Shown here one piece after another: positions 20,695 through 46,116 of a stretch of DNA of 64,000 bases. The translations under genes were made by a program, and so were the position numbers. The DNA lies in assembly GCA_040765985.1 (NCBI GenBank), contig JAXGRK010000002.1, forward strand, positions 9,940 to 73,939. The letters run 5' to 3'. This stretch comes from Candidatus Dojkabacteria bacterium (lineage in GTDB: Bacteria > Patescibacteriota > Dojkabacteria > SC72). The notes beneath the pieces are model-generated. The model ran no database searches. It was not told where the DNA came from and worked only from the letters and a program-made list of their open reading frames with translations. How positions within the stretch are numbered: position 1 is the first letter of the stretch; each line of letters starts with the position of its first letter.

Positions 20695-21030
20695 TTAGCT
20701 ATTAGATCTCTTAGAGGAAATGCCCTCTAAAATTCCAGAACCAATTGCCATAATAGAAGTAATCTTTTTTATTGGTACCAAAACAGCACTATTCACTTGA
20801 TATACAGTACCTTTTACAGTACTAACCATCCCTTCTACATCACTGATAATTCCATTTGCCACTCTTAAAGTTTCCTGTGCATCAATAACAATTTTCTTAG
20901 CTTCCTTAATTGTATTCCCAGATTCTTTAAGTAACATTGCTAATTGATATAGAACAAAACAAACAAAGAATGTAAAAACACCAATAATAATCATCCAGTA
21001 CAAACTTGGTATACTCTCCATTTTGATCAT
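20695..21030 (-). CDS. DUF948-like small membrane protein
   Basis: 111 aa. N-terminal TM followed by a T/V/S-rich helical region, matching the DUF948 pattern. Confidence 0.4.
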   Translation of the reverse strand: MIKMESIPSLYWMIIIGVFTFFVCFVLYQLAMLLKESGNTIKEAKKIVIDAQETLRVANGIISDVEGMVSTVKGTVYQVNSAVLVPIKKITSIMAIGSGILEGISSKRSNS

Positions 21031-21101
21031 AGTGTAAATTTAATATATATAATTATGCTTGTATTTACATACTAATGTCAAGCTAAATGGTATAATTAAG
21101 T

Positions 21102-21830
21102 ATGAATAGATTCTTTATTAAACACAAATTAAATATTGATGACACTGTCCATCTCTCAGATTCGGACAGTGAATTAGTTATAAATAGCATCAAATTAAAA
21201 GTAGAAAATTTCATTGAAGTAGAAACATATGATGCTGTATATTTAGCTGTAATTACGGACATATCTAATAAATCCGTTGAGGTTGAGATATTAGAAGAGA
21301 TTGAAAAAAAAGAAGAAGAAAATTCCCATGATTTAACAATATTACAATCCCTTATCGGAGATAATAAATTTAACTTTTTCTTGGAGAAATCTATTGAAAT
21401 AGGTATTGACCGAATTATTCCAATAGAATCTTCTTATTCCACAATAAATAGAAATAAAGCATTAAAAAAGTTTGGACTTTGGAAAAAAATAATTAAAGAT
21501 GCAACAGAACAATCTAGAAACATCACTCCTACAATATTGGAAAAACCAATTAAATTAAAAGATCTCTCGATTAAAGATATACCTAATAGAATATGTCTCT
21601 CAACTGAAAATACATCCTCTATAAATCTAGATAAATATTTTGAAAAAGCTAATATTAAAGAACCAACCATAATTGCTATCGGACCAGAAAAGGGTTGGAG
21701 TAGTAATGATATTGAAATATTTAAAAATTTAAATTTCACCTTTATTAAACTTAAAGGTAATATATTAAGAACTGAAAGTACTGGATTGGTAATAGGGAGC
21801 ATAATTAAATACTTAAAAGGGGAAATCTAA
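21102..21830 (+). CDS. rsmE: 16S rRNA (uracil1498-N3)-methyltransferase
   Basis: 242 aa. C-terminal IAIGPEKGWSSNDIE...GNILRTESTGLV is the RsmE SPOUT signature. Confidence 0.75.
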   Translation: MNRFFIKHKLNIDDTVHLSDSDSELVINSIKLKVENFIEVETYDAVYLAVITDISNKSVEVEILEEIEKKEEENSHDLTILQSLIGDNKFNFFLEKSIEIGIDRIIPIESSYSTINRNKALKKFGLWKKIIKDATEQSRNITPTILEKPIKLKDLSIKDIPNRICLSTENTSSINLDKYFEKANIKEPTIIAIGPEKGWSSNDIEIFKNLNFTFIKLKGNILRTESTGLVIGSIIKYLKGEI

Positions 21831-22855
21831 TGGGAAGAAAGAGAACAAGAAACAATTACAAGAAACCAAGAAGTTTTAACAAAGATTCAGAATCAAAATA
21901 CTTTACAAAAGATGATATCTTTATTTCCAGAATGGCTAGTATTCTAAGAATTCCAAAGAATGCTGTTTTAGAAACATTCAACCAAAGAGCGCTTACAACA
22001 ATTAGATTAAATTCTTTGATGGGTAATCCTAGAGATACATTAAGAAGATTAAAATCTAGGGGCTATGAACTTAAAAGTATTCGATGGTCTCCAAATACAT
22101 ATGTTGTGACTAATCGAGACAAAGGAGAGATTTCTCAAATAGATGAATATAGAGAGGGGACTTTTTACATACAGGATTTATCTAGTATCTTAGCAACATT
22201 AGTACTAGATCCAAAACCCAAGGAAAAAATAGTAGATGTTTGTTCTGCACCAGGCAGTAAAACAACACATATTGCAGATTTAACAAAGAATAAAGCAATT
22301 ATAATTGCTAATGATATAGAGGTAGGAAGAACTAACTCCCTTCGCAATGTAATAGAACAATTTGGGGCAACTAGTGCAAAGATTACTCTAAGTGATGGAA
22401 GAGAGTTTGGGAAGAAGTATCCTGACTATTTCGACAAAGTACTTTTAGACGCCCCATGTAGTGGAGAGGGGAGAATATACATGAGAGGACAGAAACCTTT
22501 AAGATTTTGGAGTGTAAAAAAAGTAAAATCCTCAGTTATGATTCAAAGAGAATTACTTGAATCTGCTTTTAGAACTCTTAAAACTAATGGCACTTTGGTA
22601 TATTCAACATGTACACTAGAGCCAGATGAGAACGAAGGTGTATTAACGACATTGTTAAACAATCATAAAAATGCTCAGATAGTTGATATTGATATTGTAA
22701 ATACTCAAGCGTTTAAGGACTACAAAAAACATATTACAAGAGGTATTACTCACTGGAGTGGAAATCAATACCACCCATCTGTTAAAAATAGTATAAGGAT
22801 ACTCCCATCGTCTGAAATGATGGGCTTCTTTATAGCAAAGATAGTAAAAAAATAG
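21830..22855 (+). CDS. rRNA cytosine-C5 methyltransferase, RsmB/RsmF (NOL1/NOP2/Sun) family
   Basis: 341 aa. VDVCSAPGSKTTHIA (SAM-binding) and LDAPCSGEG (catalytic Cys) motifs. Confidence 0.8.
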   Translation: MGRKRTRNNYKKPRSFNKDSESKYFTKDDIFISRMASILRIPKNAVLETFNQRALTTIRLNSLMGNPRDTLRRLKSRGYELKSIRWSPNTYVVTNRDKGEISQIDEYREGTFYIQDLSSILATLVLDPKPKEKIVDVCSAPGSKTTHIADLTKNKAIIIANDIEVGRTNSLRNVIEQFGATSAKITLSDGREFGKKYPDYFDKVLLDAPCSGEGRIYMRGQKPLRFWSVKKVKSSVMIQRELLESAFRTLKTNGTLVYSTCTLEPDENEGVLTTLLNNHKNAQIVDIDIVNTQAFKDYKKHITRGITHWSGNQYHPSVKNSIRILPSSEMMGFFIAKIVKK

Positions 22856-22876
22856 GGGAGTTACCCCCTACTTCTA

Positions 22877-24980
22877 TTATTCCTTAGTAACTTCTTCCTT
22901 CTTCTCGTTTACCTGTTTAATACTTAGCTTTAACTTACCATCTCTTTCCTTAGAAACAAGCTTTACTTTTACATCATCTCCCTCTTTAAGATACTTTCTT
23001 ACATCTTTAACAAACTCGTCTGTAATTTCGGACACATGGACTAAGCCAGATAGACCTGGAGCTATATCTACAAATGCACCATACTCCATTATACTTGCAA
23101 CTTTACCGTCATATATTTCTCCTACAACTGGTACTAAGCCAAGTTTTTTAACATAAGCTAAAGCCATATCTATTGATTCTTGATTCATTGCATATATATT
23201 TACAGCACCACTTTCCTCTACGGTAATTTCTGCCCCTGTTCTTTCAGTTAACTCTCTAATATTTTTTCCTCCTGGACCTATTAACTCTCCAATCTGATCT
23301 ACTGGAATTTCTGCTCTAGCAACCTTTGGAGCAAACTTGGATAGTTCTGCTTTTGGCTGAGAGATTGCTTTCTCCATTACCTCTAATACTTTTAATCTAG
23401 CAATTTTTGATTTCTCAAAGGTTTCTTTAACAATCTCTATGGTTAAACCCTTCATCTTGTTATCCATTTGTACTGCTGTAATACCATCTTTTGTACCTGT
23501 TACTTTGAAATCCATATCTCCATAGAAATCTTCTACACCCTGCATATCTGTAAGAATATGGAATGTACCATTCTCTTCATTTACTAAACCACAAGCTATT
23601 CCCCCAACCATCTTCTTAATTGGAACACCTGCAGCCATTAGTGCTAATGTTGAACCACAAGCTGATGCCATTGAACTTGAACCATTCTCTCCCTGAACTT
23701 CAGACATTACCAAAATTGTATATGGGAATTCATCTACAGATGGAATGACAGGAATTAGTGCTTTCTCTGCTAACATACCATGTCCTATTGCTCTTCTACT
23801 TGGAGATAGACGTGCTCTATCAGCATCTCCATAAGCAAAAGGTAAATCGTTGTAGTAATGCATATATCTTTTCTCTTTCTCACCTAACATATCATCAACT
23901 AACTTTGCATCTTTAAGTGTACCCAATGTAGCAATAGAGAGCACCTGTGTTACACCTCTGGTAAATAGGGCAGAACCATGAACTCTTGGTAGCAAGTCTA
24001 CCTCTGCATCCATTTCTCGTATTTCATCAAAGTCCCTGTTATCAGCTCTTTTACTCTTTTCTGCAACATACTTTCTCATGGTCTTCTTAAGAAGCTTTTC
24101 ATATCCCTCACTCATTTGAGATTTAGAGTATTTACCTTCAAAGTTTTTAAATACCTCTTCTTTAGTAGACTCATGTAACTCTTTATCTCCTTTTAAGAGG
24201 TTTTCTAAAAGTCTATCACCTAAAAATTTGGATATCTCTTCTATCATTGCTTCATCTATACTAAATGAAACATACTCTTTTTCAACCTTATCTAATTTCT
24301 TTAAGAATTCATTTTTGGACATCTACCCATTTTTGCATTTCAGATAAGCTCATTTCCATTGCCTTAATTACATCTGATTCAGGGATTTCATAACAACCTG
24401 CATCAATCATTGTAAATACCTTTCCATCACCCCCTAATACATAGTTCATTTTATTCTCCTCATCTACATCTTCCATACTTCTATAGATTGCCTTAATACT
24501 ATCTCCCTCCATACCCATTCGGACACCTGCAATAGGGCCATCAAATGGTGCATGTGAGTTCATAAGGGCAACTGACGCAGCATTTATTGCTAAAATTACA
24601 GGATCATTCTCCTCATCATATGACATTACAGTAACAATCAAGCTTAACTCATCCCTGTAATCGTCTGGAAATCTAGATCGTAGTGCTCTATCTATCATTC
24701 TTGCTTTTAAAACTGCATCATCACTTGGGAACCTCTCAATTTTTACAAATCTAGATCCATTAATCTTACCCGATGCATAGAATCTCTCTATATATTCAAC
24801 AGACATTGGGAAGTAATCATTTTCCTGTTTTGCTTTAGCAGTATTAACATTAACCTCAACAACGGTATCCCCCATTCTTGCAATAACTGCACTTTCTGAC
24901 TTTAAAGCAAGTTTTCCTGTTTCAAATGAACACTTCCTACCATCTATTTCAAACTCATAAATTTTTTGATTAAACAACAT
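22877..24980 (-). CDS. pnp: Polyribonucleotide nucleotidyltransferase (PNPase), split into two ORFs by an apparent 1-nt deletion at about 24309-24322
   Basis: ORF 24309..24980 is the first RNase PH domain. ORF 22877..24322 is the alpha-helical linker, second PH domain, KH (IGPGGKNIREL) and S1 domains. The frames differ by 1 at ccaaaaatg. One extra A gives ...KWVDVQKNEFLKKLDK... and a continuous roughly 704 aa PNPase. Confidence 0.9.
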
Positions 24981-25073
24981 AAATAATTATATTAAAAAAT
25001 ATTAAATATCAAACTAAATAACTTAGTAGTTATATCAATATAGAGGGAAAAAAGAAAGACCTGAAAAACAGTA

Positions 25074-25337
25074 TTATATCTTTATTTTCTTTGTAAATGT
25101 TTCATACCTCTCTGGTTCGCTTTGTGAAAGGTACTGTAATAACCTTCTCCTTTTACCAACTTTCTGAAGTAAACCTCTTCTTGAGTGATTATCTTTTTTG
25201 TGATCCTTAAGATGTTCACTTAACTTTAATATCTCTTGCGTAAGAATAGCTACTTGAACTTCGGGAGAACCAGTATCACCCTCATGGAGGGCAAAGGAGT
25301 TCACAATCTTTTGTTTTTCATCTTTAGATAATGCCAT
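25074..25337 (-). CDS. rpsO: 30S ribosomal protein S15
   Basis: 87 aa. [19 protein letters not shown]...[16 protein letters not shown] is canonical S15. Upstream of pnp as usual. Confidence 0.93.
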
Positions 25338-25396
25338 ATATTCTAGATTAACATCATATATCTGTTTTTACAATAGCACAACATCGTACAAACCCT

Positions 25397-25425
25397 ATTT
25401 TATATTATTATAGGATTTGTGTCAA
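25397..25425 (-). promoter_or_regulatory. Candidate rpsO promoter (TTGACA-N15-TATAAA)
   Basis: The minus strand reads ttgacacaaatcctataataatataaa roughly 65 nt upstream of the rpsO ATG. Confidence 0.35.
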
Positions 25426-25433
25426 ACATTTCT

Positions 25434-26615
25434 TTATCGAGAAACCTTATAACAGTACAGTTCATCACCTTCGTTGCTTTCTACATCAATATCAAGAATC
25501 ACACCACAATCTTCTCCCTGTTTTACCTCATGTACAGTTTCTTTTCCTTTTCGTAATGATTTTATTTTACCTTCTGCCAATATTTCATCATTGCGAACAA
25601 CATAACATTTACAATCTCTTTTTAATATTCCATCCTTAACCCTAGAACCGAGTACCTTAGAACCATCTGAAAGTACAAACATCATTTTTATTACAGCACT
25701 TCCAATCTCTTCTTCGACATGTGCAGGAGTAGACAACATCTCCAACGCATCTTCAACCTCTTCAACCAATTTATAAATGATGGAGTAAGTTCTAACCAAA
25801 ACTCCACTCTTTTTTGCTACATCCTCAGAACCCTTTTCTATACCTACTTCGAAACCCAAAAGAATCGCTTTTGATAGTTTAGCCATCTCAATATCTTTAT
25901 TTGTTATATCTCCAACTCCATCAGATACAATATTAACTGAATACTCATCTTTCTTAACTTTCACTAATGATTGTTTTAATGCTTCTAGAGAACCTTGAGA
26001 AGAGCTCTTTACAATTACATTAAGAATCGTATCTCCGTCTTTCTGTTCTTCATCAAATATTGAACCGAATATGTCATCTTCAACAATACTCAAATCCTCT
26101 AATGTGGGTTCTACTTTGTACAAAGTAGAGAGTAATTTAAGATTATTTTTTTCTAAAATGAAAACTTCTGTACCTAAAGGTATTAAATTCGATATCCCTA
26201 TTACTTTACCACCACAACCACAAGATAAATCACAAATATTCTCTCCCTCCTCTGATATTATTCCTTTTACTTTCTCAATTTCAAAACTTTCTCCTTTTTT
26301 ATACCCTAACCAAGAGCCCTTACATAGGTCCCCACTTATTAACACCAATGAAGATATATTTCCTCTAGTCTTATCCTTTACTGATTCTAATACATAGGCC
26401 CTTGCAGCAACTCCTTCAGGTAAAACCCCTCTATCCTCTAAACCCTCAACATCAGCAACGAGATTGATTAAATCTAAAAGTTCGGAGATTCCTTTCCCAG
26501 TTTTTCCAGAAACCTCAATTACAGGTATATTTCCTCCCATACCCTCTACTTGTACCCCTTCTGTTTGTAATATCTCTTTTAATCTTAGCAAATATTTACA
26601 TTTCAGGCAGATCAA
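25434..26615 (-). CDS. infB: Translation initiation factor IF-2, intact 3' part only (end of G domain, domain II, C1, C2)
   Basis: 393 aa open frame. NIPVIEVSGKTGKGISELLDLI is the G5 region, followed by the beta-barrel and C-terminal domains. The frame is bounded upstream by stops. The 5' continuation is recognisable but disrupted (next feature). Confidence 0.85.
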   Translation of the reverse strand: MICLKCKYLLRLKEILQTEGVQVEGMGGNIPVIEVSGKTGKGISELLDLINLVADVEGLEDRGVLPEGVAARAYVLESVKDKTRGNISSLVLISGDLCKGSWLGYKKGESFEIEKVKGIISEEGENICDLSCGCGGKVIGISNLIPLGTEVFILEKNNLKLLSTLYKVEPTLEDLSIVEDDIFGSIFDEEQKDGDTILNVIVKSSSQGSLEALKQSLVKVKKDEYSVNIVSDGVGDITNKDIEMAKLSKAILLGFEVGIEKGSEDVAKKSGVLVRTYSIIYKLVEEVEDALEMLSTPAHVEEEIGSAVIKMMFVLSDGSKVLGSRVKDGILKRDCKCYVVRNDEILAEGKIKSLRKGKETVHEVKQGEDCGVILDIDVESNEGDELYCYKVSR

Positions 26616-27120
26616 TCTTGTTTATTACAACAATGGGTTTTATGGAGGATTTTTATTATTTCTATAGATTCAACAGTTTGTGGCTTAACACTATCATTAG
26701 CAGCAACTATTAAAAGAACAATATCTGCAATACTACTCCTCTAGATCTCATCAACTGAATGCTTCATGACCAGGTGTATCTATGTAATTTTTTTAGAAGC
26801 ATTTTTGCCTGGAGCAATTGTAAATACACAGATATCTTTGAGTTACCACCTGGCTTCACAACTTTGAACATGACTCTTTCTAATGTAATCAAGTATTGTA
26901 GCTTTTCCACATACATGACTCAATATTGCAACAATTGGGACTCTGGCTTGAGCACATATATTTTTGTTTCTCAACTTTTAACCATTTTAAACTATAATAC
27001 TTTCATCTTAATATTACTTCCTCTTTTTCTCTTCTTCTTTTCCTGCAACCTCTTCTTGTTTGCTCAGCATACTCCCCTCAACAGCATCTTCCTTTTTCTC
27101 TTTCTTTTCTTTTCTTCTTA
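26616..27120 (-). pseudogene. infB: Disrupted 5' part of infB (G-domain remnants in three frames with in-frame stops)
   Basis: Minus-strand pieces: PIVAILSHVCGKATILDYIRKS (P-loop with one codon missing and substitutions), IDTPGHEAFS, MRSRG, SSIADIVLLIVAANDSVKPQTVESIEII and [13 protein letters not shown] (G4 NKID). Each sits in a different frame. At least 4 frame changes within about 150 nt. Boundaries approximate. Confidence 0.6.
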
Positions 27121-28205
27121 TCTCCCTTCTCTAACTTCTTCATTCTCTTCCTGTATTTCTTCTGGTATCTCACCCTGGGCTCCAACAATATCAATCTTAA
27201 ATACCTGTCAATTTCCAAGCTAATCTTACATTTTGACTCCTCTCTACTGATAGCTATGATAGCTGATCAGAAGGAGATACCTGTTGCTGTATCATCAGAT
27301 ATTTCCAAGCAGAATCAACCTTTGCAGGACTTAATGCATTAGCAACAAATCTCTCTCTAAATCTTCATCCTTATCAATTATATCAATCTTTTCTCAAGCA
27401 AGTTCATTCATAATGTTTGCTATACGAATACCTCTCTGACCTACACATGAACTAATTGGATCAATACCATCTTGATGTGACACATGGGTAATTTTTTTCA
27501 TCTTCTAGAACTAGCTTTGCAACTGCCTTAATTTCAAATTCACACCAGATTCAATCTCAGGAACTTCCAATTTAAAAAGCTCTATTAAGAAATTAGATCT
27601 GCCTAGATACTAATATTTCAGAGTCTTCAATACTCTTAAGTAATACTTTGTACCTCTCTCCAACTCTATAGTAATTCATTAGCAATCTGCTCCTCTTGTG
27701 GCATAAATGCAGTTGCCCTTGCCTATCTCCATTACTGCCATACCTTTTGCATTCTTGTACCAAAGCTGTATATACCTCTCCTACCTTATCACTAAATTAC
27801 CTATTACTGCATCTCCTTTTCAGATTCTCTATCTTTTGGTAGTAAAACCTGTTTAGCGGTTTGTGTAGCTATCCTTCCTAAATCATCAGATGCATCTCAA
27901 TCTGAACAGAATCCCCTATCTCAACACTTGGAGAAATTAACTCTGCCTTCACTTAATGCAATCAGTCTCAGTCATCGTTTACCTTTTTAACAACTTTCAT
28001 TGCAAAGTTTAAAACTCACCAGTCTCTCTATCAACTCCTACTGCTAAATTACTACCTAACTTTTCATCAATCTCCTCATATTCAACCTTCCATGTTTCTC
28101 TTTCTTAATGTACTTAATATTTATTCCAAGGCCTTAAAGATCTCCTTTATCTATTCTCTTTTCTGTTGCTATCTGATTTATGGCAGCTACTAACTCTGAT
28201 GTCAT
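27120..28205 (-). pseudogene. nusA: Disrupted nusA remnant
   Basis: From the ATG at 28205, MTSELVAAINQIATEKRIDKGD (NusA N-terminus). Further on, DPISSCVGQRGIRIANIMNELA*EKIDIIDKDEDLE and FVANALSPAKVDSAWKYLMIQQQVSPSDQLS*LSVERSQNVRLAWKLTGI*D (KH1/KH2), with TGA, TAA and TAG stops and frame changes. Boundaries approximate. Confidence 0.55.
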
Positions 28206-28251
28206 TGCTATATATATAAAATATTAATAAAAAATTATCATTACATACATA

Positions 28252-28285
28252 CTAAAAAAGGTGAGAAAAACATCTCACCATATCT
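28252..28285 (-). terminator. Intrinsic-terminator-like hairpin (ggtgag-N8-ctcacc followed by T6 on the minus strand)
   Basis: Perfect 6-bp GC-containing stem at 28260-28279 with a U-run 3' on the minus transcript. Lies between the dnaJ remnant and the nusA remnant. Confidence 0.45.
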
Positions 28286-28289
28286 TTAA

Positions 28290-29360
28290 TACATCTTCCA
28301 ACGAAGTATACTACAAGTGTGTATTAAAATCCAAATACCAAAAGATATTTTAGCTTTGCCTTTAACTCCTCCCAAAGCTTCTTTTCTTCTCATTAATCTC
28401 TTAGGAATATCTACATCCACTCTCACATACAAATTTCCTTGTACCATCTTTACCTAATACTGGTACCTTCTCCCTTTACTCTAAATATGGTGCCTGGTTG
28501 TGTACTACTTGGTATTTTTAACTTAACATCACCTTTTTAATAGTTTCAATATCTATCTTTCCACTGCAATTGCAGTATGAACAGGTATACTTACAGAGTA
28601 CAAATCATTCCTCTTCTATCAAATTTCTCAGATGGCTCGACCTCAACTTCAATAAATAGGTCTCATACTCTGTATTAATACCTGCGTTTCCTCCATCTCT
28701 AAACCTTAAAACCATTCCATCACATGCTCCTGCTGGTATATGTATCTTCATATTCTCTGTCTTTGATTCATGGTTAAATTTTTACCTGCACAATTCATAC
28801 AAACTTTTTCTGGGATGTCTCTACCACTACATTTAGAACACTGGGCCATTACGGATATCTGACTCAAGAAACTGTTTTGAACTCTTCTCTACCAGTTCCC
28901 TATATACATCACATGTTTTTTCCTTCACTGTACTACTTCCTACCCTTACACTCTTCACACTTTATATTTCCTTTGACCAACCTTAAACTCCCCAGCACTT
29001 TCCATTGCTTCATCAAACCCAAATCTCATCTTGTACTCATATTCTCGCCACCAAATATTCCCGAGCTTCATTCTGATTCCCAACTACAAATCAACTAAAA
29101 TTATTTCCATTTCCTCCAAAAATGTATTGAAAATATCACCTATCAAAAGGTGCCACTGCAGCTTACATATTCATACCCACTACCATTGCCACTTCTTGGT
29201 CAAAACCCTGAGTACTGGCATGACCATACTGATCGTAAGCTGCTTTTCGTGTCATCAGAAAGGACTTCGCATGCCTCCCGAACCTCTTTAAATTTATCCT
29301 CAGCACCATCTTCCCTCAGTTTACATCCGGATGAAACTTCATAACAAGCTGGCATGCCTT
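28290..29360 (-). pseudogene. dnaJ: Disrupted dnaJ remnant
   Basis: From the ATG at 29360: MPACYEVSSGCKLREDGAEDKFKEVREA.EVLSD (J domain, HPD region degraded). Then KAAYDQYGHA...GF and DIFQYIFGG (G/F-rich region), then Cys-rich fragments. All are broken by stops and frame changes. Confidence 0.5.
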
Positions 29361-30229
29361 TTTAATTTTCTTCTTTTCGAATTCTTGTCTATACCAAGAA
29401 CTTCATAGTAATCTCTTTGTTCATATAGGTGATATTCTAGCAGACAAACGCATTATGCCTACAGATGACATCAAAATCTTTAACTGATAATATATTTAAC
29501 ATGGAAAATGATATACAAATACAAAGAGAAAATGAAAGGAAAATATCTAATACAAAAGAAACTTTCTGTTTTTGTTTTGTTGGGTTATCATTATTTGCCC
29601 AATCTATACCCTTACTCTCTTCATATATCCAAGGAGAGGTTAACATCTTAAAACAGAAACTAATGAAAGATCCTTTGCCAGAATCATATAGGCAGTATAT
29701 TGAAGACCACCTGTATACCATGATCCTGGAGTAAGTTACTTTGCGAATCTTCTCAAATAGTGTTGAAAACCTTAAATACGATGGTCTATTTACATATGAC
29801 CCAACAACTAAAACAACTAGAGAAGTACTTGTAGACAAAAGAGAAAAAGGGCTAAACATGTACATCAATATACCTTCAATAGTTATACTCAATATACTAG
29901 TAACAACTCCTAATGTAGAAAGAAAATGAAGAAGTATAAGATAGATACTCTAAATCTGATTAGCACATTTTAAGGCACCCCTATCCCTGAGATGGAGAAA
30001 CTCCCTTTATATACGGACAGTGCAGTGATAAGTTTTTTTAATAGACACTCTAATCTCCCAGAAACAATATTTACCAAACTTGAGAATGTGGATATTGAGA
30101 TAGTGTAGAGATAGAGAGAGAGGATACTACTCTTTCATATATTGTTAGGAAGTAAAAATTGTTTCTCCAGATGATTTTTCCATTTTGAAAACTCAAGATA
30201 TGAAACTGTAACCTTAATGACTTGTTGGC

Positions 30230-30693
30230 TACTTGGGTTTGAACTAAGAGATTAATAGTAGTAGCTGAAAGGATTTAATTTTTTGTACAATGTATATAAG
30301 GAAATAATAAAAAGAAAATAGTAATACTCTCAATAATTTATGATATTGCTAATGATAAAATATATTATGTATTAGTATGCTTCCAAGTAGTCAAATCTGT
30401 TGAGATAGTATTTTGGGGGTTCTTAAAGAAGAAGAGGCACGCATCCATTAATCGAAAAATACCAGCAAGAGAATCCAGGTATAACAATTAAGTATGCAAT
30501 ACAACCATTAAAAGACACATGAATCCATCCTCTATGGAAGATTACAACAATCTGATACTTCGAGTTTACCTGCACCAGATATTGCGATGATACATAATAA
30601 TTGGTTACCCAAATTTCAAAATATTTATCTCCTCTACTCAAACGACATTATGAGTGAGGATACATACTGCAAGAGTTCAATTAACCGGCTATA
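30230..30693 (+). pseudogene. Disrupted 5' part of the solute-binding-protein gene whose intact 3' part follows
   Basis: IEKYQQENPGITIKYAIQPLKDT* in one frame and LPAPDIAMIHNNWLPKFQNIYLLYSND in another (SBP family-1 N-terminal motifs), in frame with and contiguous to the intact ORF at 30694. Start approximate. Confidence 0.5.
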
Positions 30694-31596
30694 TTGGATT
30701 TTAAAGGAGGTGATAATAATATCTATGCCATACCATTACAGATTGATGGCCTGATGGTCATATACAACAAAGATATTCTCCAAGAAGAGGGATATTCAAC
30801 ACCACCTGCGGATTGGGATTCCTTTATGGAACTAGCCAAAGATTTAACCATTAGAGATAGCGAAGGGAAAATTACTAGATCTGGATTGGCCATAGGAACC
30901 GCTAATAATATAACGCACTCTTTTGATATTCTTTCATATTTCTTTTTACAGAACTTAGTACAGTTAATGAATGAAGATAGAACTCAAATACAACTTACTT
31001 CAGACAGGGCAATCAGAGCATTTAATACATACACATCGTTTGTAATGGAAGAAGATGCAACTTGGGCAACATATCTCCCAAGTGATTTAACTTCTTTTGT
31101 TAACGGAGAATTAGCTATGATGTTTGGAACTAGTTGGAGAGCCCTAGACATACTTTCTCAAACAGAAGATATTGAATTCGGATTGGCTCCTTTACCACGA
31201 TTACCCAATAACGAAGAGGTCTACTACTCAACATATTGGGGAACGACCGTTAGCAAATCAAGTAAAAACTCCTACGAGGCATGGAAATTTGTTGAATTTC
31301 TAAGCCAACCTGAACAATTAAGAAGATTAAATCAAAATTCCGCTAAGATAAGGACGTTTGGAGAGCCATACTCGAGAGTATCTATGAATTCAGAAATGAA
31401 AGACATTGAATATACAGAAGCCCTTTCATATATGGCACCTTTTATGAAATCCTGGCAACTTGGAGATCAACCCGTTGTAGAGGCATTCTTAAATGGCGCG
31501 ATAACTAATGTATTAGAGAAAGATTCTGATAGTTACTCTGAGTTAAAGAACGCACAAGAAGATATTAATATTAAACTTGCAGAAAGTAATAAATAA
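30694..31596 (+). CDS. ABC-transporter extracellular solute-binding protein (family 1, sugar-type), intact 3' roughly 300 codons
   Basis: IPLQIDGLMVIYNKDILQEEG...PADWDSFMELAKDLT and LAPLPRLPNNEEVYYSTYWGTTVSKSSKN resemble MalE/UgpB-type SBPs. The track start is a TTG right after a stop. The true start is in the degraded region. No permease or ATPase gene adjacent. Confidence 0.65.
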   Translation: MDFKGGDNNIYAIPLQIDGLMVIYNKDILQEEGYSTPPADWDSFMELAKDLTIRDSEGKITRSGLAIGTANNITHSFDILSYFFLQNLVQLMNEDRTQIQLTSDRAIRAFNTYTSFVMEEDATWATYLPSDLTSFVNGELAMMFGTSWRALDILSQTEDIEFGLAPLPRLPNNEEVYYSTYWGTTVSKSSKNSYEAWKFVEFLSQPEQLRRLNQNSAKIRTFGEPYSRVSMNSEMKDIEYTEALSYMAPFMKSWQLGDQPVVEAFLNGAITNVLEKDSDSYSELKNAQEDINIKLAESNK

Positions 31597-31612
31597 AAGC
31601 TAATATATACAA

Positions 31613-33469
31613 ATGAGCTTGAAAATTGCCCCAATAAAAAAAAGACAAAGAAGTATTTTACTTACATTCCTACTTCTGCTTTCGCTACCTGTTTTTGTGT
31701 TCAGTTTACTTGAGAATCAAAGTTTTGATACCAGAAATAGAGCATTTGAAGAAATAGAATTAAGTGAACTTAATCCCTGTATAATAACATTCCCAAATGT
31801 AAACCCCTATACATTAGAAGTAAACAATACAGTCAGACTTCAGATTGATGCACTTTCAGAACAGTATGGTATCAAAAGTATCATTGTATCCGATGGTATA
31901 GGTAATACAATCTTTTCACAAACCTATAAAGATACCGTATCTAAAGTAACTGAATCCTTTTTATACACACCTACTATTGCTAGATCCTACAATTTAATGG
32001 GTACAATGGTTGATAAAAGTGATAGGACTTTCGGATGTGCGATAAGCAGTCCCTACGATGTAAAAGGCGTAAAAGCCATACTAACAAATACCAAACCGGA
32101 ATTTTTAACCTCACCAAAAGAATCAAAACCATCACAAAGTATTCAAACTAATACTACTTACGAATACACATTAGAAGCACAAGACATTGATGGAGATACA
32201 ATCAATTATTCCTACTCCTTCACTAAAGGACAAGATTGGTTGAAACCATCAATCATTGATGATGGAGGAGATGGTAAGCTAACTATTAAATTCAGGGGCA
32301 CAACAGATAAACCAGGTAGTTACTTAGCAAATGTATTCATACATGATGGGTATAGTAAACATTTATCTTCCCAATCCTGGGTAATCAGTGTAAGTCCAGA
32401 AGGTAATGATAACCCAATTGTAACAATAATAGAGCCAGAACAAAGTATTACAATTAAAGATGGCAAACCAATAAAAATAAGCTGGGAAGCGGTAGATAAC
32501 AATGGAATAATCAGATATGAAATATATATATCCTCTAATCCTGTAAACGAACTGGCCTGGGACCCCATAAACCTAGAAATTCCTCCAACACAAACCTCAT
32601 ACGATTTAGATATTAGTACCATTGCGGATGGTGCATACCGAGTAATTGTTAGAGCAATTGATAATCAAGATCCAGCAGCCGTAGGGATTGATGTTTCTGA
32701 AGAGATAATAATTGCAAAAGAGATAGAAGAGCCAGACGAACCAGATGATAAAGTTGTACTTCCACAACCCCAAATTATAAATATATCACCAACTGGAAGT
32801 GATGAAATAAGTAATCTCACACCAACAATTAAAGCTTCTCTAATAGCAACAGAGAACGGTACTATCGAAGAATCCAGCATCCTGGTTAAGATTGATGGAA
32901 AAGATATCACGAAAGATATAAAAATAAATAAGATATCTGATTCTGAATACACTGTAATATACATACCCGAAAACGCATTAGATATTGGTCTTCATAAAAT
33001 ATCTATCTACTTCAAAGATTCAAACGGGGGTGAGATTGATAAAGAGTGGACTTTCAATATCTCCGGCTCTACACAAGATTCAGATGTATTCAACATATTT
33101 GGTTTTGAAATTCCAAAACGAACTGGATACATAATAGGAGGAGGAATTGGTTTAATAGCTCTCGCCATTTTAATTCCTTTAGTAATAATGGCCGTATGGA
33201 AAGACAATTCGAAAGAAATATCAACAGGGAGTGTTGTTCTACCTAAATCTTTACCTTCTACAGAAGATGTCTTCGTACCTCAATCACAAAAGACTGTTGA
33301 GAATCTTGTGAAAGAAAGTCCTACACCACCAGAGCCAGATATCCAAGAAGATGATATTCCAGAGCCAGATATTGATACAGTATTTGATGCACCTCTACCA
33401 GAAGATGGTTTCACTAATATGTACCAACAGATTAAAGAAATCGAAGAGAAAGAAAACAAAGAGGCATAG
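31613..33469 (+). CDS. Surface protein: signal peptide, Ig/cadherin-like repeats, C-terminal TM anchor and acidic Pro/Glu-rich tail
   Basis: 618 aa. N-terminal h-region LLTFLLLLSLPVFVFSLL. Beta-rich repeats with D/N/T. TM GYIIGGGIGLIALAILIPLVIMAVW near the C-terminus. Confidence 0.6.
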   Translation: MSLKIAPIKKRQRSILLTFLLLLSLPVFVFSLLENQSFDTRNRAFEEIELSELNPCIITFPNVNPYTLEVNNTVRLQIDALSEQYGIKSIIVSDGIGNTIFSQTYKDTVSKVTESFLYTPTIARSYNLMGTMVDKSDRTFGCAISSPYDVKGVKAILTNTKPEFLTSPKESKPSQSIQTNTTYEYTLEAQDIDGDTINYSYSFTKGQDWLKPSIIDDGGDGKLTIKFRGTTDKPGSYLANVFIHDGYSKHLSSQSWVISVSPEGNDNPIVTIIEPEQSITIKDGKPIKISWEAVDNNGIIRYEIYISSNPVNELAWDPINLEIPPTQTSYDLDISTIADGAYRVIVRAIDNQDPAAVGIDVSEEIIIAKEIEEPDEPDDKVVLPQPQIINISPTGSDEISNLTPTIKASLIATENGTIEESSILVKIDGKDITKDIKINKISDSEYTVIYIPENALDIGLHKISIYFKDSNGGEIDKEWTFNISGSTQDSDVFNIFGFEIPKRTGYIIGGGIGLIALAILIPLVIMAVWKDNSKEISTGSVVLPKSLPSTEDVFVPQSQKTVENLVKESPTPPEPDIQEDDIPEPDIDTVFDAPLPEDGFTNMYQQIKEIEEKENKEA

Positions 33470-33508
33470 GAAGTTCTCCTCTCACTCCCATTTTGATATA
33501 ATCATACG

Positions 33509-35296
33509 ATGAGAAATCTTACATATTCTGAATTAAAGAACGAGTATCTAGAATTTTTTAAAAGTAAAAATCATATAGAGATACCAAGTGCCCCATTAGT
33601 ACCAGAGGATGATCCCTCTGTGCTTTTTGTTAATGCAGGAATGTTTCCGTTAGTACCTTTTCTTAAAGGAGAAAAACACCCTTTAGGAAATAGATTAGCA
33701 AATTCTCAAAGATGCCTAAGAACTGGGGATATTGATGACGTTGGAGACAACTATCACTCTACTACATTTGAGATGTTGGGTAACTGGTCATTAAATGATT
33801 ACTTCAAAAAAGAAGCCATTGAGATGTCTATTGAATTCTTTGTTGATGTATTAGGTATGGATATAAAAAGAATATATGCATCTGTATTTGCAGGAGAAGA
33901 TGCAATACCCAAAGATAATGTTTCTATAGAGGTATGGAAAGAGATATTCTCTAGATACAACATAAATGCAAAGGTAGGAAAGGGAGAAAGAATACAAGAA
34001 TATGGAAAAGAGCATAATTGGTGGGGATTACCCAACGGAGGTCCTTGTGGTCCAGATTCTGAAATATTCTACGATACAGGTAAAAAACCGTGTGGTAAGA
34101 ACTGCCATATTAACTGCAATTGTGGGAAATATATAGAGATAGGAAATAATGTATTTATGGAATACCTTCTAGAGAATGGAATGTATCTACCCCTTGGTAA
34201 ACATAACGTTGATTTTGGTGGAGGACTTGAAAGATTAGTCATGATTACCCAAGGAGTAGAATCTTTCTATGAAATTGATATATACAAACCAATATTTGAA
34301 AAAGTTAAGGAAATATCTAAATCTGAAAACATTCAATCACAAAGAATAGTTACTGACCATATTAAAGCAGCTACATGGATAATCGCTGATGGAGTAAAAC
34401 CATCTAATACAATGCAGGGCTACATACTAAGAAGATTAATCAGAAGAGCAATGAGACACGCTAGAATACTAAATATCAATTCCCCTTTTATTAAAGAAAT
34501 TGCCGAAATATCTATAAACCAATTTAAAGGCGAATGGATTAAATTAGAACAAAACAGAGATGAGATATTAAATACTCTAAGCCAAGAAGAGGAGAAATTT
34601 AATAAGACATTAGAGAAGGGTTTAAAGGAACTAGACCATTTAATAGAAAGAAAAAAGAACATATCAGGAGAAGACATATTTAGAATGTATGAAACATATG
34701 GTCTTCCTAAAGAGGTAACTGAAGAGATATTACAAGAGAAAAATATAGAGATAATAGATACAAGTACTTTTGAAAAAGCCAAGTTAGAACATAAGAAGAA
34801 ATCTCAGACCTCATCCTCTGGAATTTTCAAAGGTGGTTTAGCAGACACATCAGAAATGTCTACAAAATATCATACGGCTTCTCATTTGCTTCTTTCTGCT
34901 CTACGTAAAGTACTTGGAGATCATATATATCAGAAAGGAAGTAACATTACACCCGAAAGATTGAGATTGGATTTCCCCAATTCTGAGAAATTAACAAATG
35001 AACAAATTCAAGAAGTAGAGAATTTAATTAACAAAGCAATAGGAAATCAATTATCGGTTACCTTTAAAGAAGTATCAAAAGATGAAGCATTAAAACTTGT
35101 TCCCTTTGCAGCTTTCGAAGAGAAGTATGGAAGTAAAGTTAAACTTTACACAATTGGAGATTCTCAAAACCCCTTCTCCGTTGAGATATGTAACGGTCCT
35201 CATGTTTCAAATATTTCTGTATTAGGTAAATTCAAAATAGTAAAACAAGAAAGTGTAGGTACAGGAATTAAAAGAATAAAAGCAATACTAGAATAG
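33509..35296 (+). CDS. alaS: Alanine--tRNA ligase, short form (catalytic, tRNA-recognition and editing-core domains; no C-Ala domain)
   Basis: 595 aa. Class II motifs (FVNAGM, GNNVFMEY, GGGLERL). Editing-domain HTASHLL...CNGPHV. Ends shortly after the editing core. Confidence 0.88.
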   Translation: MRNLTYSELKNEYLEFFKSKNHIEIPSAPLVPEDDPSVLFVNAGMFPLVPFLKGEKHPLGNRLANSQRCLRTGDIDDVGDNYHSTTFEMLGNWSLNDYFKKEAIEMSIEFFVDVLGMDIKRIYASVFAGEDAIPKDNVSIEVWKEIFSRYNINAKVGKGERIQEYGKEHNWWGLPNGGPCGPDSEIFYDTGKKPCGKNCHINCNCGKYIEIGNNVFMEYLLENGMYLPLGKHNVDFGGGLERLVMITQGVESFYEIDIYKPIFEKVKEISKSENIQSQRIVTDHIKAATWIIADGVKPSNTMQGYILRRLIRRAMRHARILNINSPFIKEIAEISINQFKGEWIKLEQNRDEILNTLSQEEEKFNKTLEKGLKELDHLIERKKNISGEDIFRMYETYGLPKEVTEEILQEKNIEIIDTSTFEKAKLEHKKKSQTSSSGIFKGGLADTSEMSTKYHTASHLLLSALRKVLGDHIYQKGSNITPERLRLDFPNSEKLTNEQIQEVENLINKAIGNQLSVTFKEVSKDEALKLVPFAAFEEKYGSKVKLYTIGDSQNPFSVEICNGPHVSNISVLGKFKIVKQESVGTGIKRIKAILE

Positions 35297-35298
35297 AT

Positions 35299-35739
35299 AT
35301 GCAAACAGAAAAACCCATATTAGCAATTGATTACGGAGAAAAAAGAATCGGATTAGCAATCTCAGATACTAAGGGAATAATTGCATCCCCGCTTGATGTA
35401 CTTAAAATTACAAAAAATAGAAATATAAATAACATATTAGAAGAACTACTACTCATAGTAGATGAATACAGAGTAAAAAGTATACTGATAGGTATGCCCC
35501 AAGAGTTTGAAACTTCATATTCTAAATCTATAAACAAGATTAAATCGTTTGCAAAAAAATTAACAGACCTAACAGAGATACCTGTAATATTTCAAGATGA
35601 AAGCTATTCTACTACTCAAGCCCAGAATATGTTACTATCTCTAGGACAAAGTACTAGGTCATCAAGGGGAAAAATTGATATGATATCAGCAACCTTGTTC
35701 CTTCAAGAATTTCTAAATTCTAATAATAAACAGAAATGA
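35299..35739 (+). CDS. ruvX: Putative pre-16S rRNA nuclease / Holliday-junction resolvase-like YqgF
   Basis: 146 aa. ILAIDYGEKRIGLAISD N-terminal motif. alaS-ruvX-mltG synteny. Confidence 0.8.
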   Translation: MQTEKPILAIDYGEKRIGLAISDTKGIIASPLDVLKITKNRNINNILEELLLIVDEYRVKSILIGMPQEFETSYSKSINKIKSFAKKLTDLTEIPVIFQDESYSTTQAQNMLLSLGQSTRSSRGKIDMISATLFLQEFLNSNNKQK

Positions 35740-36737
35740 AATCTTTAATTAAAATATTTCTCTTAGCACTACTTACTGTTGCATTGATTGTTTTCCTCGC
35801 AAAGAAAAATTACGACACAGTAATAGATCAACCCAATAGTGAAAGTACTGAAAAAATAACCTTTCAGATAGTAACAGGAGAGTCAGTAGATTCAATAATC
35901 CAAAAATTAGTAGATTTAGGAGTATTGAAAGAGAAGTGGGCTAATTACTTAAGAATATATTTAAAAATAAATAACCTAGCAGAAAAGATACAAGCTGGAA
36001 CATATGAATTACCTAAGAATTTAAGTATAAAAGAAATAGCAGAAACAATTCAAAGAGCTAGAGGATTAGATATTTGGGTAACAATACCAGAAGGATTAAG
36101 AAAAGATGAAATAGCAGAAATACTGTACACTGAACTTTCAAAAAGTAGCAATCAGGTGTTTAGTAAAGAAGAATTCTTACAATTAACTACAAATACCTCC
36201 TTTATTTCAACATTGGGATTTTCTAAATATACACCAACCGATTTAGAGGGATATCTCTTTCCTGACAAGTATGCTTTCTCCGTAGATGAAACTACTCAAG
36301 ATGTTTTAACTAAAATGATTAGAAATTTCATAAACAAAGTTGGTGAAAATGACTCTTACGAAGATCTTATTATCGCTTCCATGGTAGAAAGAGAAGGAAG
36401 AACATCTGAAGATCGACCAATGATTGCAGATATAATAAATAAGAGATATGAAGAAGGATGGCTTCTGCAAATATGTGCAACCATACTCTATCTAAAGAAA
36501 GATTGGGAACATGTTATTACAAAACAAGATATGGCAGAAGAGAATCCGTATAACACTTACAAAACTCCTGGATTACCTCCTACCCCAATTTGCAATCCTG
36601 GTCTAGCAGCTATTGATGCAGTAAGAAACCCTGAATCCAATCCCTACTACTACTACATACACGATGATGATGGAAATATACACTATGGAAAAACTCTAGA
36701 CGAACATAATAGAAATATTGAAACATATCTTAGATAA
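35736..36737 (+). CDS. mltG: Endolytic murein transglycosylase MltG (YceG-like)
   Basis: 333 aa. N-terminal TM. YNTYKTPGLPPTPICNPGLAAIDAVRNPESNPYYYYI is the YceG signature. Confidence 0.85.
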   Translation: MKSLIKIFLLALLTVALIVFLAKKNYDTVIDQPNSESTEKITFQIVTGESVDSIIQKLVDLGVLKEKWANYLRIYLKINNLAEKIQAGTYELPKNLSIKEIAETIQRARGLDIWVTIPEGLRKDEIAEILYTELSKSSNQVFSKEEFLQLTTNTSFISTLGFSKYTPTDLEGYLFPDKYAFSVDETTQDVLTKMIRNFINKVGENDSYEDLIIASMVEREGRTSEDRPMIADIINKRYEEGWLLQICATILYLKKDWEHVITKQDMAEENPYNTYKTPGLPPTPICNPGLAAIDAVRNPESNPYYYYIHDDDGNIHYGKTLDEHNRNIETYLR

Positions 36738-43222: not shown

Positions 43223-45046
43223 ATGGTTAATACGAATTTAAATACAATACGCAATTTCTCAATAATTGCACATATAGATCACGGTAAATCTACATTGGCA
43301 GATAGAATACTTGAGCAAGCACATATCGATATCTCAAGAGATAAAAGAGAGTCTCGAATATTAGATAGATTAGATTTAGAACAAGAGAAAGGGATAACGA
43401 TAAAACTACAAGCATGCAGATTGATATGGAAAAATATAGAGCTAAATCTCATAGACACTCCTGGTCATGTAGATTTCTCCTATGAAGTATCTCGATCTCT
43501 TGCTGCTTGTGAGGGAGCACTTCTTCTCATAGATGCCTCACAAGGTGTACAAGCACAAACCATATCTAATACACAAAAAGCCCTAGAGCTTGGATTAACC
43601 TTAATACCAGTAATAAACAAAATTGATTTACCAAATATAAACATCAAAGAGAAAGAAGATGAATTAATTCAATTACTTGGGTTTAAGCGAGAAGAGATTC
43701 TTAAAGTATCTGGTAAAACAGGGGAAGGTATAGAGAAACTTCTAGATACAATCATTGAGAAATGCCCTCCCCCAATTGGAGATATTAACAAACCTCTTAG
43801 AGCTTTAATATTTGATTCTTACTATGACGAACATCGAGGTGTAGTAATAGCAGTAAGAGTGTTTGATGGAAATATAAAATATGTACCTGGAAAATCAGAT
43901 GATCTTTACATATTACAAAGGCAACAACCCTTTAAACCAACAGAGATAGGGATATTTACACCAGATTTAGAAGAAACTACCCAACTATCTGCAGGAGAAG
44001 TTGGATATATAGCTACTGGCTTTAAAGATATTAGTATGTTTACTGTTGGAGACACAGTATCTAATACAAAAGACACATTACCATTAGATGGGTACAAAAC
44101 ACCAAAACCAAATGTATACGCTACATTCTTTCCAGTTACTACAGATCAGTATGAGCCCTTAAAAATTGGCTTAAACAAATTGAGCTTAAATGATGCATCC
44201 CTCTCTTTTTCTGATCAAAGATCAAACCTACTCGGCTCTGGTTTCAGATGTGGCTTCCTTGGGCTTTTACATATGGAAATTATCCAAGAAAGATTAGAAA
44301 GGGAGTATGATGTTGATTTGATAATTACAGCGCCCACAGTAGAGTACAAGGTTACTAAAACAGATGGTACTAAACTTGAGGTTCAAACTCCTCAAGAGAT
44401 ACCCGACCCATCAGAAATATCTGAAATTCAAGAACCATGGGTAAGATTAAAAATTATGACTCCAGATAGATACATGGGACCCCTAATGGAGCTATGTCAA
44501 CATAAAAGAGGAGTATATGTAAATACACAATATCTACCAAACACATCAGGTGACATTCAACTTAAAGATCAATATATTACATTAGAGTATGATATACCAC
44601 TAGCATCTTTAGTATCTAATTTTTTTGATTTACTCAAAAACAGATCTAGTGGATACGCATCAATGGAGTATGAATTTATTGATTTCTTTCCAGTAGATTT
44701 GGTAAAAGTATCGGTTCTTGTAAATCATCAGGAAATACCAGCACTAAGTTTTCTTGAAACAAAAAGTTAGCACAAAGTAAAGCGAATAAATTACTTGAGG
44801 TAATGAAAGAAGAGATTCCTAGACAGCAATTCCCTATTCCATTACAGGCATCTATAGGGGCTAAAATAATTGCAAGAGAAGACGTTAAGGGCTTTAGAAA
44901 AGATGTTACTGCTAAACTATACGGTGGAGACTACACTAGAAGATTAAAATTATTAGAGAAACAGAAGAAAGGTAAAAAAAAGATTGAAAATGATAGGGCA
45001 AGTAAACATCCCTCAAGAAGCGTTCTTAAGTATATTAAAAACATAA
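43223..45046 (+). CDS. lepA: Elongation factor 4 (LepA), C-terminus broken by two apparent 1-nt deletions (about 44760 and about 44965)
   Basis: ORF 43223..44770 has the GTPase motifs ([22 protein letters not shown]) and LepA domains. The C-terminal piece ...[64 protein letters not shown] sits in the frame of track ORF 44803. The final [21 protein letters not shown] is in a third frame after an A8 run. Confidence 0.9.
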
Positions 45047-46116
45047 TGATTAAAAAGCTTACTCTTACAAATTTTAGGAAATTTGAAACTAAAACCCTTG
45101 AGTTTGATAAAAATATCGTTATTTTTTACGGTCATAATGCACAAGGGAAAAGCTCAATACTAGAGGCAATATATTTAATAAACACAGGGATATCTCCATG
45201 GGCTTCAATGAATGAATTCGTAAATATCAATCAGAGCAATCAAATATTTACAAGAATTGAATCTTTAGAAGATGATAAAAGTTTTGTATATTACAAAGAC
45301 GAAGAGAAGAGAATTTTTAAAATAGATGGTAAAAATACAATACCATCTAAATTTTTTGAAAACAGATCTGCAAATATATTTAATCCCGAAAAAATAGAGC
45401 TACTAATGATATCTCCTTCTCAAAGAAGGGAGTTTCTTGATGACACTATACTTAAATATGATTATGAATATCAAACACTAATCAAAGATTTTAAAAAGAT
45501 TTTAAGACAAAGAAATGCATATTTAAAAAAACTAGCCAAACTCTTCTATGATAAAGGTGTAATTGCAATTAACGATCCTCAATTAAATTTCTGGAGTAAT
45601 CATTTTTCATTAACTTCTGCATATATATTACAAAACAGAATTAAATTGATAAAAGAGTTATCTAACAATGAATATGAAATTAAATATAAAACAGATATCG
45701 ATTTTGATAAAGAAAGTTAAATAATATTGAATATCTGAAGAAGTGTTTTGAGAAAGAGTTAGAAAAAAACAAAAGAAGAGATATAGCTACTGGGTATACT
45801 AATGTTGGACCACATAGAGATGATTGGGATATATTAAACGATAGAGACATAAGAAATTCGGTTCAAGGGGAGAAAAAGATTAGCGATAGGTAAACTTATA
45901 TTTGAAACTCAACAAATTATTTTTAATAAAACAAGTAATTACCCTGTACTACTTCTAGATGATATTGCCTCTGAGTTAGATATCTTTAATACTAAAAAAA
46001 TTTTTGATAAAAAATTACTTAATAAACAACAAACATTTATTACTGTCATCGATTACAAATCTCTCCCAAAAAATATTCTCAACAATGCACAACTAATACA
46101 CCTAAATGGTTTATAA
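45046..46116 (+). CDS. recF: DNA replication/repair protein RecF, frame broken twice (about 45715 and about 45880)
   Basis: [45 protein letters not shown] (Walker A). Later ...[14 protein letters not shown] (RecF signature). C-terminal [35 protein letters not shown] (Walker B/D-loop). The three segments lie in three frames joined at A-runs. Confidence 0.8.

Follow-up and report, generated by a model that had tools for sequence, protein, structure and literature searches.

A sharply bounded 4.1 kb block of disrupted genes in a Candidatus Dojkabacteria contig, very probably a patch of uncorrected long-read sequence

Results and discussion

The DNA examined here (the window, 64 kb in total) is part of a contig of Candidatus Dojkabacteria (WS6, Patescibacteria). 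It is fully collinear with approximately 18 relatives, in which all of the genes of the block described below are intact. In the window, intact genes are absent from both strands between approximately positions 26560 and 30690, and within 26616–30693, the interval that the initial annotation had reported as devoid of intact ORFs, the open reading frames (ORFs) of both strands do not exceed 154 aa. Both edges of this block are sharp and lie in the middle of genes (infB and a solute-binding protein gene), as had been proposed, but the left edge is situated at approximately 26560 rather than at 26616; the right edge falls at approximately 30673–30690. The block is about 4110 nt long, compared with 4206 nt in the relative L005, and contains no large deletions, the largest indel being 6 nt. 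We describe it as a noisy block (26560–30690, assigned to neither strand) with dense private indels of 1–6 nt and approximately 4% excess, unselected substitutions.

The minus strand of the block carries the 5′ part of infB, followed in the direction of increasing coordinates by nusA, a terminator-like hairpin and dnaJ, and this previously noted order is that of the intact relatives. infB (encoding IF2; 25434–26985, minus strand) has 519 codons in L005. Its first approximately 145 codons (26560–26985) require at least nine frameshifts, while the other 374 codons are clean; of the 393 codons of the 3′ ORF that had been described as clean, most are so, but the first 18 or so are still noisy. We found the same disrupted P-loop reading as before (SHVCGKAT), with a 3-nt deletion at 26913. 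nusA (27017–28211, minus strand; 412 codons in L005) contains 24–25 frameshifts, and the hairpin (28260–28279, minus strand; GGTGAGA-loop-TCTCACC, then TTTTTT) lies between it and dnaJ (28349–29425, minus strand). Only remnants of the J domain and G/F region had been recognized in dnaJ, yet the gene is present from end to end (364 codons in L005), with J, zinc-finger and C-terminal domains and 22 frameshifts.

The 5′ part of the solute-binding protein gene (30290–31596; Pfam SBP_bac_1; 437 codons in L005) is present on the plus strand, as had been read, at the position that it occupies in intact relatives. Nine frameshifts fall within its first approximately 130 codons and the remainder is clean. 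A sortase-family gene (29425–30278, plus strand; Pfam Sortase; 290 codons in L005, 12 frameshifts), which the first reading had missed, lies between dnaJ and the solute-binding protein gene.

The closest intact NusA protein, P0001 (402 aa), shares 88% identity with the frame-corrected NusA of the window, the best value among the 45 top NusA matches, and its fast-evolving tail is near-identical to that of the window. No nucleotide reference of more than 90% identity was found for the block interior, P0001 being unbeaten among these 45 matches. RNA genes were considered as an explanation for the ORF-poor stretches and rejected, as the whole window contains neither tRNA genes nor matches to Rfam. 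The plus strand had also been described as poor in G (about 5%). This proved incorrect: G accounts for 10.7% of positions 26616–29450, compared with 9.5–11.9% in adjacent minus-strand genes, and G-poverty was discarded as a sign of a special process. The interpretation given below is independent of that argument.

We counted frameshifts using a frameshift-aware dynamic programme against L005 proteins; tblastn, which returned long spurious out-of-frame HSPs, was dropped. The frequent frame changes noted earlier were borne out, with 76 frameshifts needed over 26559–30669, or approximately one per 54 nt. In the same alignments, there were zero frameshifts in IF2 residues 146–519, in residues 130–437 of the solute-binding protein, and in the adjoining 615-aa gene.

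The indels responsible are not shared with the relatives. Across seven genomes (the window and six relatives) aligned over 15.4 kb, we observed 88 private indels of the window in the 4.1 kb block and four in the 11.3 kb of flanking sequence, compared with 6–19 over the whole alignment for each of the six relatives, and these counts exclude chance as the source of the excess. Within the block, the relatives have just 1–3 private indels each of a length not divisible by three. A 5.2 kb alignment gave 85 private indels of the window in the block and none beyond it, compared with 0–8 for the relatives. Private indels are evenly distributed along the block (4–14 per 500 nt), and against every one of the approximately 18 relatives indel events occur at 3–4.4 per 100 nt within the block, compared with 0.1–0.9 in the flanks. 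Deletions (60) outnumber insertions (25), sizes range from 1 to 6 nt and neighbouring events lie a median of 39 nt apart. Each of the four bases is represented among the deleted (T 36, A 32, G 26, C 19) and the inserted nucleotides (A 21, T 16, G 13, C 5), a spectrum that leads us to reject base-specific editing. An identical neighbouring base is absent at 14 of the 29 single-base deletions and at eight of the 11 single-base insertions; with most 1-nt events outside homopolymers, homopolymer slippage within the block was also rejected.

Mismatches to relatives are not visibly more frequent in the block than in the flanks. Substitutions private to one genome were identified in a three-way comparison of the window, L022 and L005, in which they make up 7.1% of the block in the window and 3.0% in L022. 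By codon position (first/second/third), they number 42/21/61 in the window and 6/3/47 in L022. Since the substitutions of the window are spread over all codon positions, the excess of approximately 4% represents unselected noise. After frame correction, the identity of IF2 to L005 is 83.2% within the block and 82.6% outside it, an unchanged value; purifying selection on the underlying genes is normal.

L022 differs from the window at 10% of positions in the block and at 23% in the flank, and a chimeric or recombinant origin of the block from another donor was therefore considered. It was rejected: a sliding-window comparison reveals the same identity gradient between every genome pair, the identity of the window to L022 equals that of L001 to L022 across the edge, and the closest relative is the same on both sides of it. 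The gradient reflects gene conservation and not a change of donor.

The short-read contig L001 (from run SRR8925753), which is 97% identical to the window where the two were aligned, reads through the left edge. A further close relative, L002 from run SRR21159529, is 99.5% identical to the window where aligned with it. In L001, infB is uninterrupted across window positions 26560–26709, and the clustered indels and mismatches that the window has there are absent. This near-identical comparison covers 150 nt of the block, and the remaining error estimate comes from relatives that are 73–90% identical.

The flanks had been described as intact, which is true locally, but damage recurs within the same window. 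A second stretch with the same kind of damage (55170–56410, minus strand) affects glyA and folD: glyA (encoding SHMT; approximately 55170–55720) is broken into seven fragments in alternating frames and in consecutive order along the Pfam profile, and folD has two frameshifts, at approximately 56250 and 56400. One additional A within an A-run (24313–24316, minus strand) divides pnp, which is continuous in L001, into ORFs of 223 and 481 aa. Isolated frameshifts beside A-runs are found in rplC (ribosomal protein L3), pnp, lepA, recF and an LCP-family gene. Together with glyA and folD, these genes indicate that the damage recurs irrespective of gene function.

Some organelles and endosymbionts recode such genes, and frameshifts in poly(A) tracts of endosymbionts are rescued by transcriptional slippage. 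The disrupted genes could on this account be cryptogenes that are rescued post-transcriptionally, through RNA editing of the insertion/deletion type or through slippage of the polymerase in homopolymers. They do encode well-conserved proteins once the frame is corrected, and the isolated frameshifts outside the block, in rplC, pnp, lepA and recF among others, resemble endosymbiont slippage sites in adjoining A-runs. The block is unlike such sites, however, in that its indels are not homopolymer-bound, involve missing or extra bases of all four kinds and up to 6 nt, and are accompanied by the unselected substitutions. The relatives, including L001 with its intact pnp, encode the genes conventionally. 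Judged from the base composition of the indels, recoding is effectively refuted, and we regard it as scarcely credible.

The initial annotation had favoured a local collapse of sequence quality, and our results point the same way: the indels are small, random and private, the underlying genes are conserved, L001 is intact and damage recurs elsewhere. We consider it very probable that the block is a technical artefact, namely a stretch of raw-long-read accuracy in the deposited contig, and that real decay is not its cause. The block would be a sequence of approximately 7–8% error, deletion-biased and consisting of random small indels together with unselected substitutions, in a contig whose remainder was brought near consensus quality. 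The segment was most likely backed by a single long read or very few, possibly because a hybrid assembly was bridged or gap-filled there or because coverage dipped locally. Its errors would then have survived both long-read consensus and polishing, since short reads cannot be aligned well to sequence so noisy. The sharp edges would require a specific cause, either a bridge read or a polishing drop-out. Truncated products of these genes are on record from one 104,083-bp NCBI contig, from which it follows that the damage is present in the deposited sequence.

The block resembles unpolished long-read or hybrid assemblies in its short gene fragments in alternating frames, its small indels private to one assembly, the homopolymer-linked single frameshifts elsewhere on the contig and the normal proteins obtained after frame restoration. 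It differs from a polished consensus, in which the remaining errors are usually sparse and lie in homopolymers, in being a sharply bounded 4.1 kb patch with an error density at the level of raw reads, which implies that there was essentially no consensus depth there. Published work describes small-indel frameshifts as a well-known way in which gene prediction fails on long-read assemblies, and notes that short-read polishing leaves certain regions uncorrected (bioRxiv 10.1101/2021.08.23.457338; PMC8812927). Both sources present tools for residual indel errors, the frameshift corrector proovframe (bioRxiv 10.1101/2021.08.23.457338) and the polisher Polypolish (PMC8812927).

A different technical route would be a mis-called consensus, and not a single raw read, over collapsed co-occurring Dojkabacteria strains or species, in which the polisher mixed reads and added indels. 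Such a collapse would be favoured by the high conservation of nusA, the infB G domain and dnaJ; no other genes of the neighbourhood are as conserved as those of the block, where identity to relatives peaks, and the short-read contigs of relatives tend to break nearby (L001 at window position 26709, L003 at 27860 and L004 at 28213). Strain mixing nevertheless accords poorly with indels that are random in base and position, private, and located away from sites that differ among relatives, or with excess substitutions at all codon positions, which are unlike third-position strain variants. An even density of about two indel events per 100 nt also resembles read noise more than a strain mixture. 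We consider this account improbable.

The initial annotation had raised localized hypermutation or decay as the more exciting alternative, and our tests offered no support for it. Under this explanation, the genes would have decayed in place or mutated in a local burst, for instance when error-prone repair resynthesized a 4 kb tract; the sequencing would have been faithful, and the cell would have been dead or complemented by intact copies elsewhere. Sharp edges and confinement to one tract could suit a single repair or replication event, and intact second copies could sit beyond the 64 kb window. Within the window, however, a search for second copies of nusA, infB or dnaJ found none, so that these essential or near-essential genes are single-copy there, and like damage affects unrelated loci, including rplC and glyA. 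In bacterial pseudogenes, substitutions greatly outnumber indels; in the block, indel events (approximately 2–3 per 100 nt) nearly match the excess substitutions. The preserved length, the lack of large deletions and the intact block edge in the 97% identical L001 argue against it as well. We therefore hold real damage to be highly improbable, and assign the same very low likelihood to its most specific form, in which a long read captured a Dojkabacteria molecule or sub-lineage whose 4.1 kb tract had been resynthesized in an extremely error-prone manner, amounting to indel hypermutation confined to one tract whose boundaries fall inside genes.

Reductive genomes such as those of Mycobacterium leprae and recently host-restricted symbionts show genuine pseudogene decay. 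The block shares with such decay recognizable remnants, frameshifts, stops and conserved gene order. Real decay, however, is dominated by substitutions, involves larger deletions, leaves essential genes untouched and hits scattered single genes, whereas the damage in the block consists mostly of indels, keeps the length, strikes essential genes, has edges within genes and overlies a sequence on which purifying selection still acts.

Conclusion

In conclusion, the most probable reading of the block is that of a long-read segment which escaped correction. The infB, nusA, dnaJ, sortase-family and solute-binding protein genes of the organism are almost certainly intact, and their pseudogenes would exist in the record alone. 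The significance of the block in the first instance is one of data hygiene, since the deposited contig feeds truncated “proteins” into public protein collections; the entries on record include a 385-aa IF2, a 300-aa solute-binding protein, two pnp halves and a 104-aa SHMT fragment.

Sequencing noise can now be separated from genuine decay without access to reads by three tests: the count of private indels among relatives, the spread of private substitutions over codon positions, and frame-corrected identity inside and outside the block. Real gene loss in Patescibacteria is actively debated, and in a Patescibacteria genome with such damage, pseudogene counts would be inflated and completeness estimates deflated. 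As the genes are almost certainly whole in the organism itself, the block carries no weight as biology.

Results and discussion

The intact C-terminal half of IF2 matched 19 genome loci, from Dojkabacteria or 'Saccharibacteria'-labelled MAGs, with protein identities to the window IF2 of at most 92% locally and 86% over the full length; the window is assigned to Candidatus Dojkabacteria (WS6, Patescibacteria). In the reference neighbourhood L005 (UBA2259), all genes are intact and encode an Ig-domain protein (615 aa), a solute-binding protein (SBP_bac_1, 437 aa), a sortase-family protein (290 aa), DnaJ (364 aa), NusA (412 aa) and a short IF2 (519 aa). Collinearity between the window and its relatives, L005 included, spans at least 25000-32487, and 20900-36460 in a wider comparison, so that the content of the disrupted block (26560-30690) can be read gene by gene: the first 145 codons of infB, the entire nusA and dnaJ genes, a sortase-family gene, and the first 130 codons of the solute-binding protein gene. 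The initial annotation had rightly recognised remnants of infB, nusA, dnaJ and the solute-binding protein gene, but overlooked the sortase-family gene (290 codons), which lies on the plus strand at 29425-30278 between dnaJ and the solute-binding protein gene, a position conserved in relatives (6185-7057 in L005). A terminator-like hairpin (28279-28260) can be found between dnaJ and nusA.

Several other features of the window can be mentioned here. infB (25434-26985; 9548-11107 in L005) encodes the short IF2 of this clade, whose G domain begins almost directly at the start; a long N-terminal region is typical of IF2 in many bacteria. A second, partial sortase-domain ORF is located at 57117-57584 on the minus strand, and another ORF of that strand (57550-63750) is very large at 2066 aa. 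The alanyl-tRNA synthetase-like ORF at 33509-35296 (plus strand) has only 595 aa; the usual bacterial enzyme is longer, and the shortness may be either genuine or due to a further truncation.

As had been claimed from the sequence alone, neither strand of the block carries an intact ORF: none exceeds 154 aa within 26616-30693, and normal long ORFs occur in the flanks. Frameshift-aware protein-to-DNA alignment to the L005 proteins gave 9 frameshifts in infB, 24 in nusA, 22 in dnaJ, 12 in the sortase-family gene and 9 in the solute-binding protein gene, all 76 of which fall within 26559-30669; IF2 residues 146-519, solute-binding protein residues 130-437 and the neighbouring 615-aa gene required none. 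A nucleotide alignment of seven genomes (26000-31200) contained 85 indels private to the window, all at 26562-30673, and 0-8 private to each of the six relatives. Across a 15.4 kb alignment (20950-36400), the block contained 88 window-private indels, with a density of 4-14 per 500 nt, and four lay outside it (24316, 24995, 35733 and 36226). The block is therefore real, but its left edge, initially placed at 26616, lies near 26560: when compared with L001, a Logan short-read contig from a population 97% identical to the window, which covers just 150 nt of the block, positions 26560-26709 show many indels and mismatches, and from 26540 onward no such damage is seen. The plus strand is not G-poor as proposed (about 5%), since measured G was 10.7%, inside the range of neighbouring minus-strand genes; there was also no break in the GC-skew profile at the left block edge.

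Relative to approximately 18 relatives, indel events in the block occur at 6-10 times the flank frequency, with no visible rise of the mismatch rate. The 60 deletions and 25 insertions are 1-6 nt long, lie a median of 39 nt apart and involve all four bases (deleted: T36, A32, G26, C19; inserted: A21, T16, G13, C5). Single-base deletions lacked an identical neighbouring base in 14 of 29 cases and lay in runs of three or more in only 3 of 29, while 8 of 11 single-base insertions did not adjoin the same base. Both this base spectrum and the non-homopolymer context argue against recoding or RNA editing, to which we assign a negligible probability. In a three-way comparison of the window with L022, its closest relative in the block, using L005 as outgroup, private substitutions in the block amounted to 7.1% for the window versus 3.0% for L022, distributed over codon positions 1/2/3 as 42/21/61 versus 6/3/47; those of the window in the flanks were dominated by third positions, as expected (22/11/72). 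The block therefore carries approximately 4% extra unselected substitutions. Together with approximately 4% of bases inserted or deleted, the sequence points to a deletion-biased error of roughly 7-8%, which is what we would expect of raw nanopore-type long reads and not of a consensus.

Damage is also found elsewhere in the window. A second damaged stretch on the minus strand (55170-56410) covers glyA (SHMT), split at about 55170-55720 into at least seven fragments in alternating frames and consecutive Pfam profile order, and folD, with two frameshifts near 56250 and 56400. Isolated frameshifts beside A-runs interrupt rplC (about 2750; 62- and 147-aa fragments), pnp (24313-24316; 223 and 481 aa), which has no interruption in L001, an LCP/LytR-family gene (about 37500 and 37800), lepA (about 44760, and an A8 run near 44975) and recF (about 45711 and 45860); that near 44975 joins the LepA C-terminus to the recF N-terminus (ORF 44803-45720). 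Passages in two published reports describe single frameshifts at homopolymers as a familiar remnant in long-read consensus sequences (PMC8812927, PMC9262707). Frameshifts in ribosomal protein L3, IF2, NusA, SHMT and LepA within 64 kb cannot be the biology of a viable cell. Proteins recorded from a single 104,083-bp NCBI contig include a 385-aa IF2 fragment, a 300-aa solute-binding protein fragment, the two halves of pnp and an SHMT N-terminal fragment of 104 aa (P0121). The damage was therefore already part of the record when it was deposited and did not arise afterwards.

After frame correction, the damaged and clean parts of IF2 share 83.2% and 82.6% identity with L005, respectively, and NusA and DnaJ share 80.5% and 73.6%. 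In the database, the corrected NusA is best matched by P0001, an intact protein of 402 aa that is 88% identical with only four codon gaps. The lysine/glutamate-rich tail of P0001, a part that normally evolves fast, hardly differs from that of the window; the remaining 12% difference is about that expected from 4% random nucleotide substitution. Judged by their corrected sequences, the genes beneath the damage are healthy. The closest relative does not switch across the block edge, and foreign DNA was therefore ruled out as the origin of the block. Real localized decay or hypermutation, the alternative raised initially, is highly improbable given the indel-to-substitution ratio, the retained length, the essential nature of the affected genes, the same damage at unrelated loci, and the uninterrupted infB of L001 at the block edge.

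The interpretation favoured in the initial annotation, a local collapse of sequence quality, was correct: the error profile is that of random indels private to the window's assembly, the damage recurs elsewhere, and the underlying genes are intact. The block is very probably an assembly and polishing artefact. It would represent a contig patch left at raw-read accuracy, presumably because only one or very few long reads lie beneath it and polishing was not possible; we infer both the sequencing platform and the underlying event, either a bridge read or a drop in coverage. A mis-consensus over a strain-collapsed conserved region is unlikely, since the indels are random and do not coincide with sites that vary among relatives. 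Short-read contigs of related populations tend to end inside or near nusA-infB (L001 at 26709, L003 at 27860 and L004 at 28213), which suggests that this conserved stretch fragments short-read metagenome assemblies and could explain why the block would be covered by long reads only. The disrupted block, real as an observation, does not represent biology; its value is that of a data-quality flag only.
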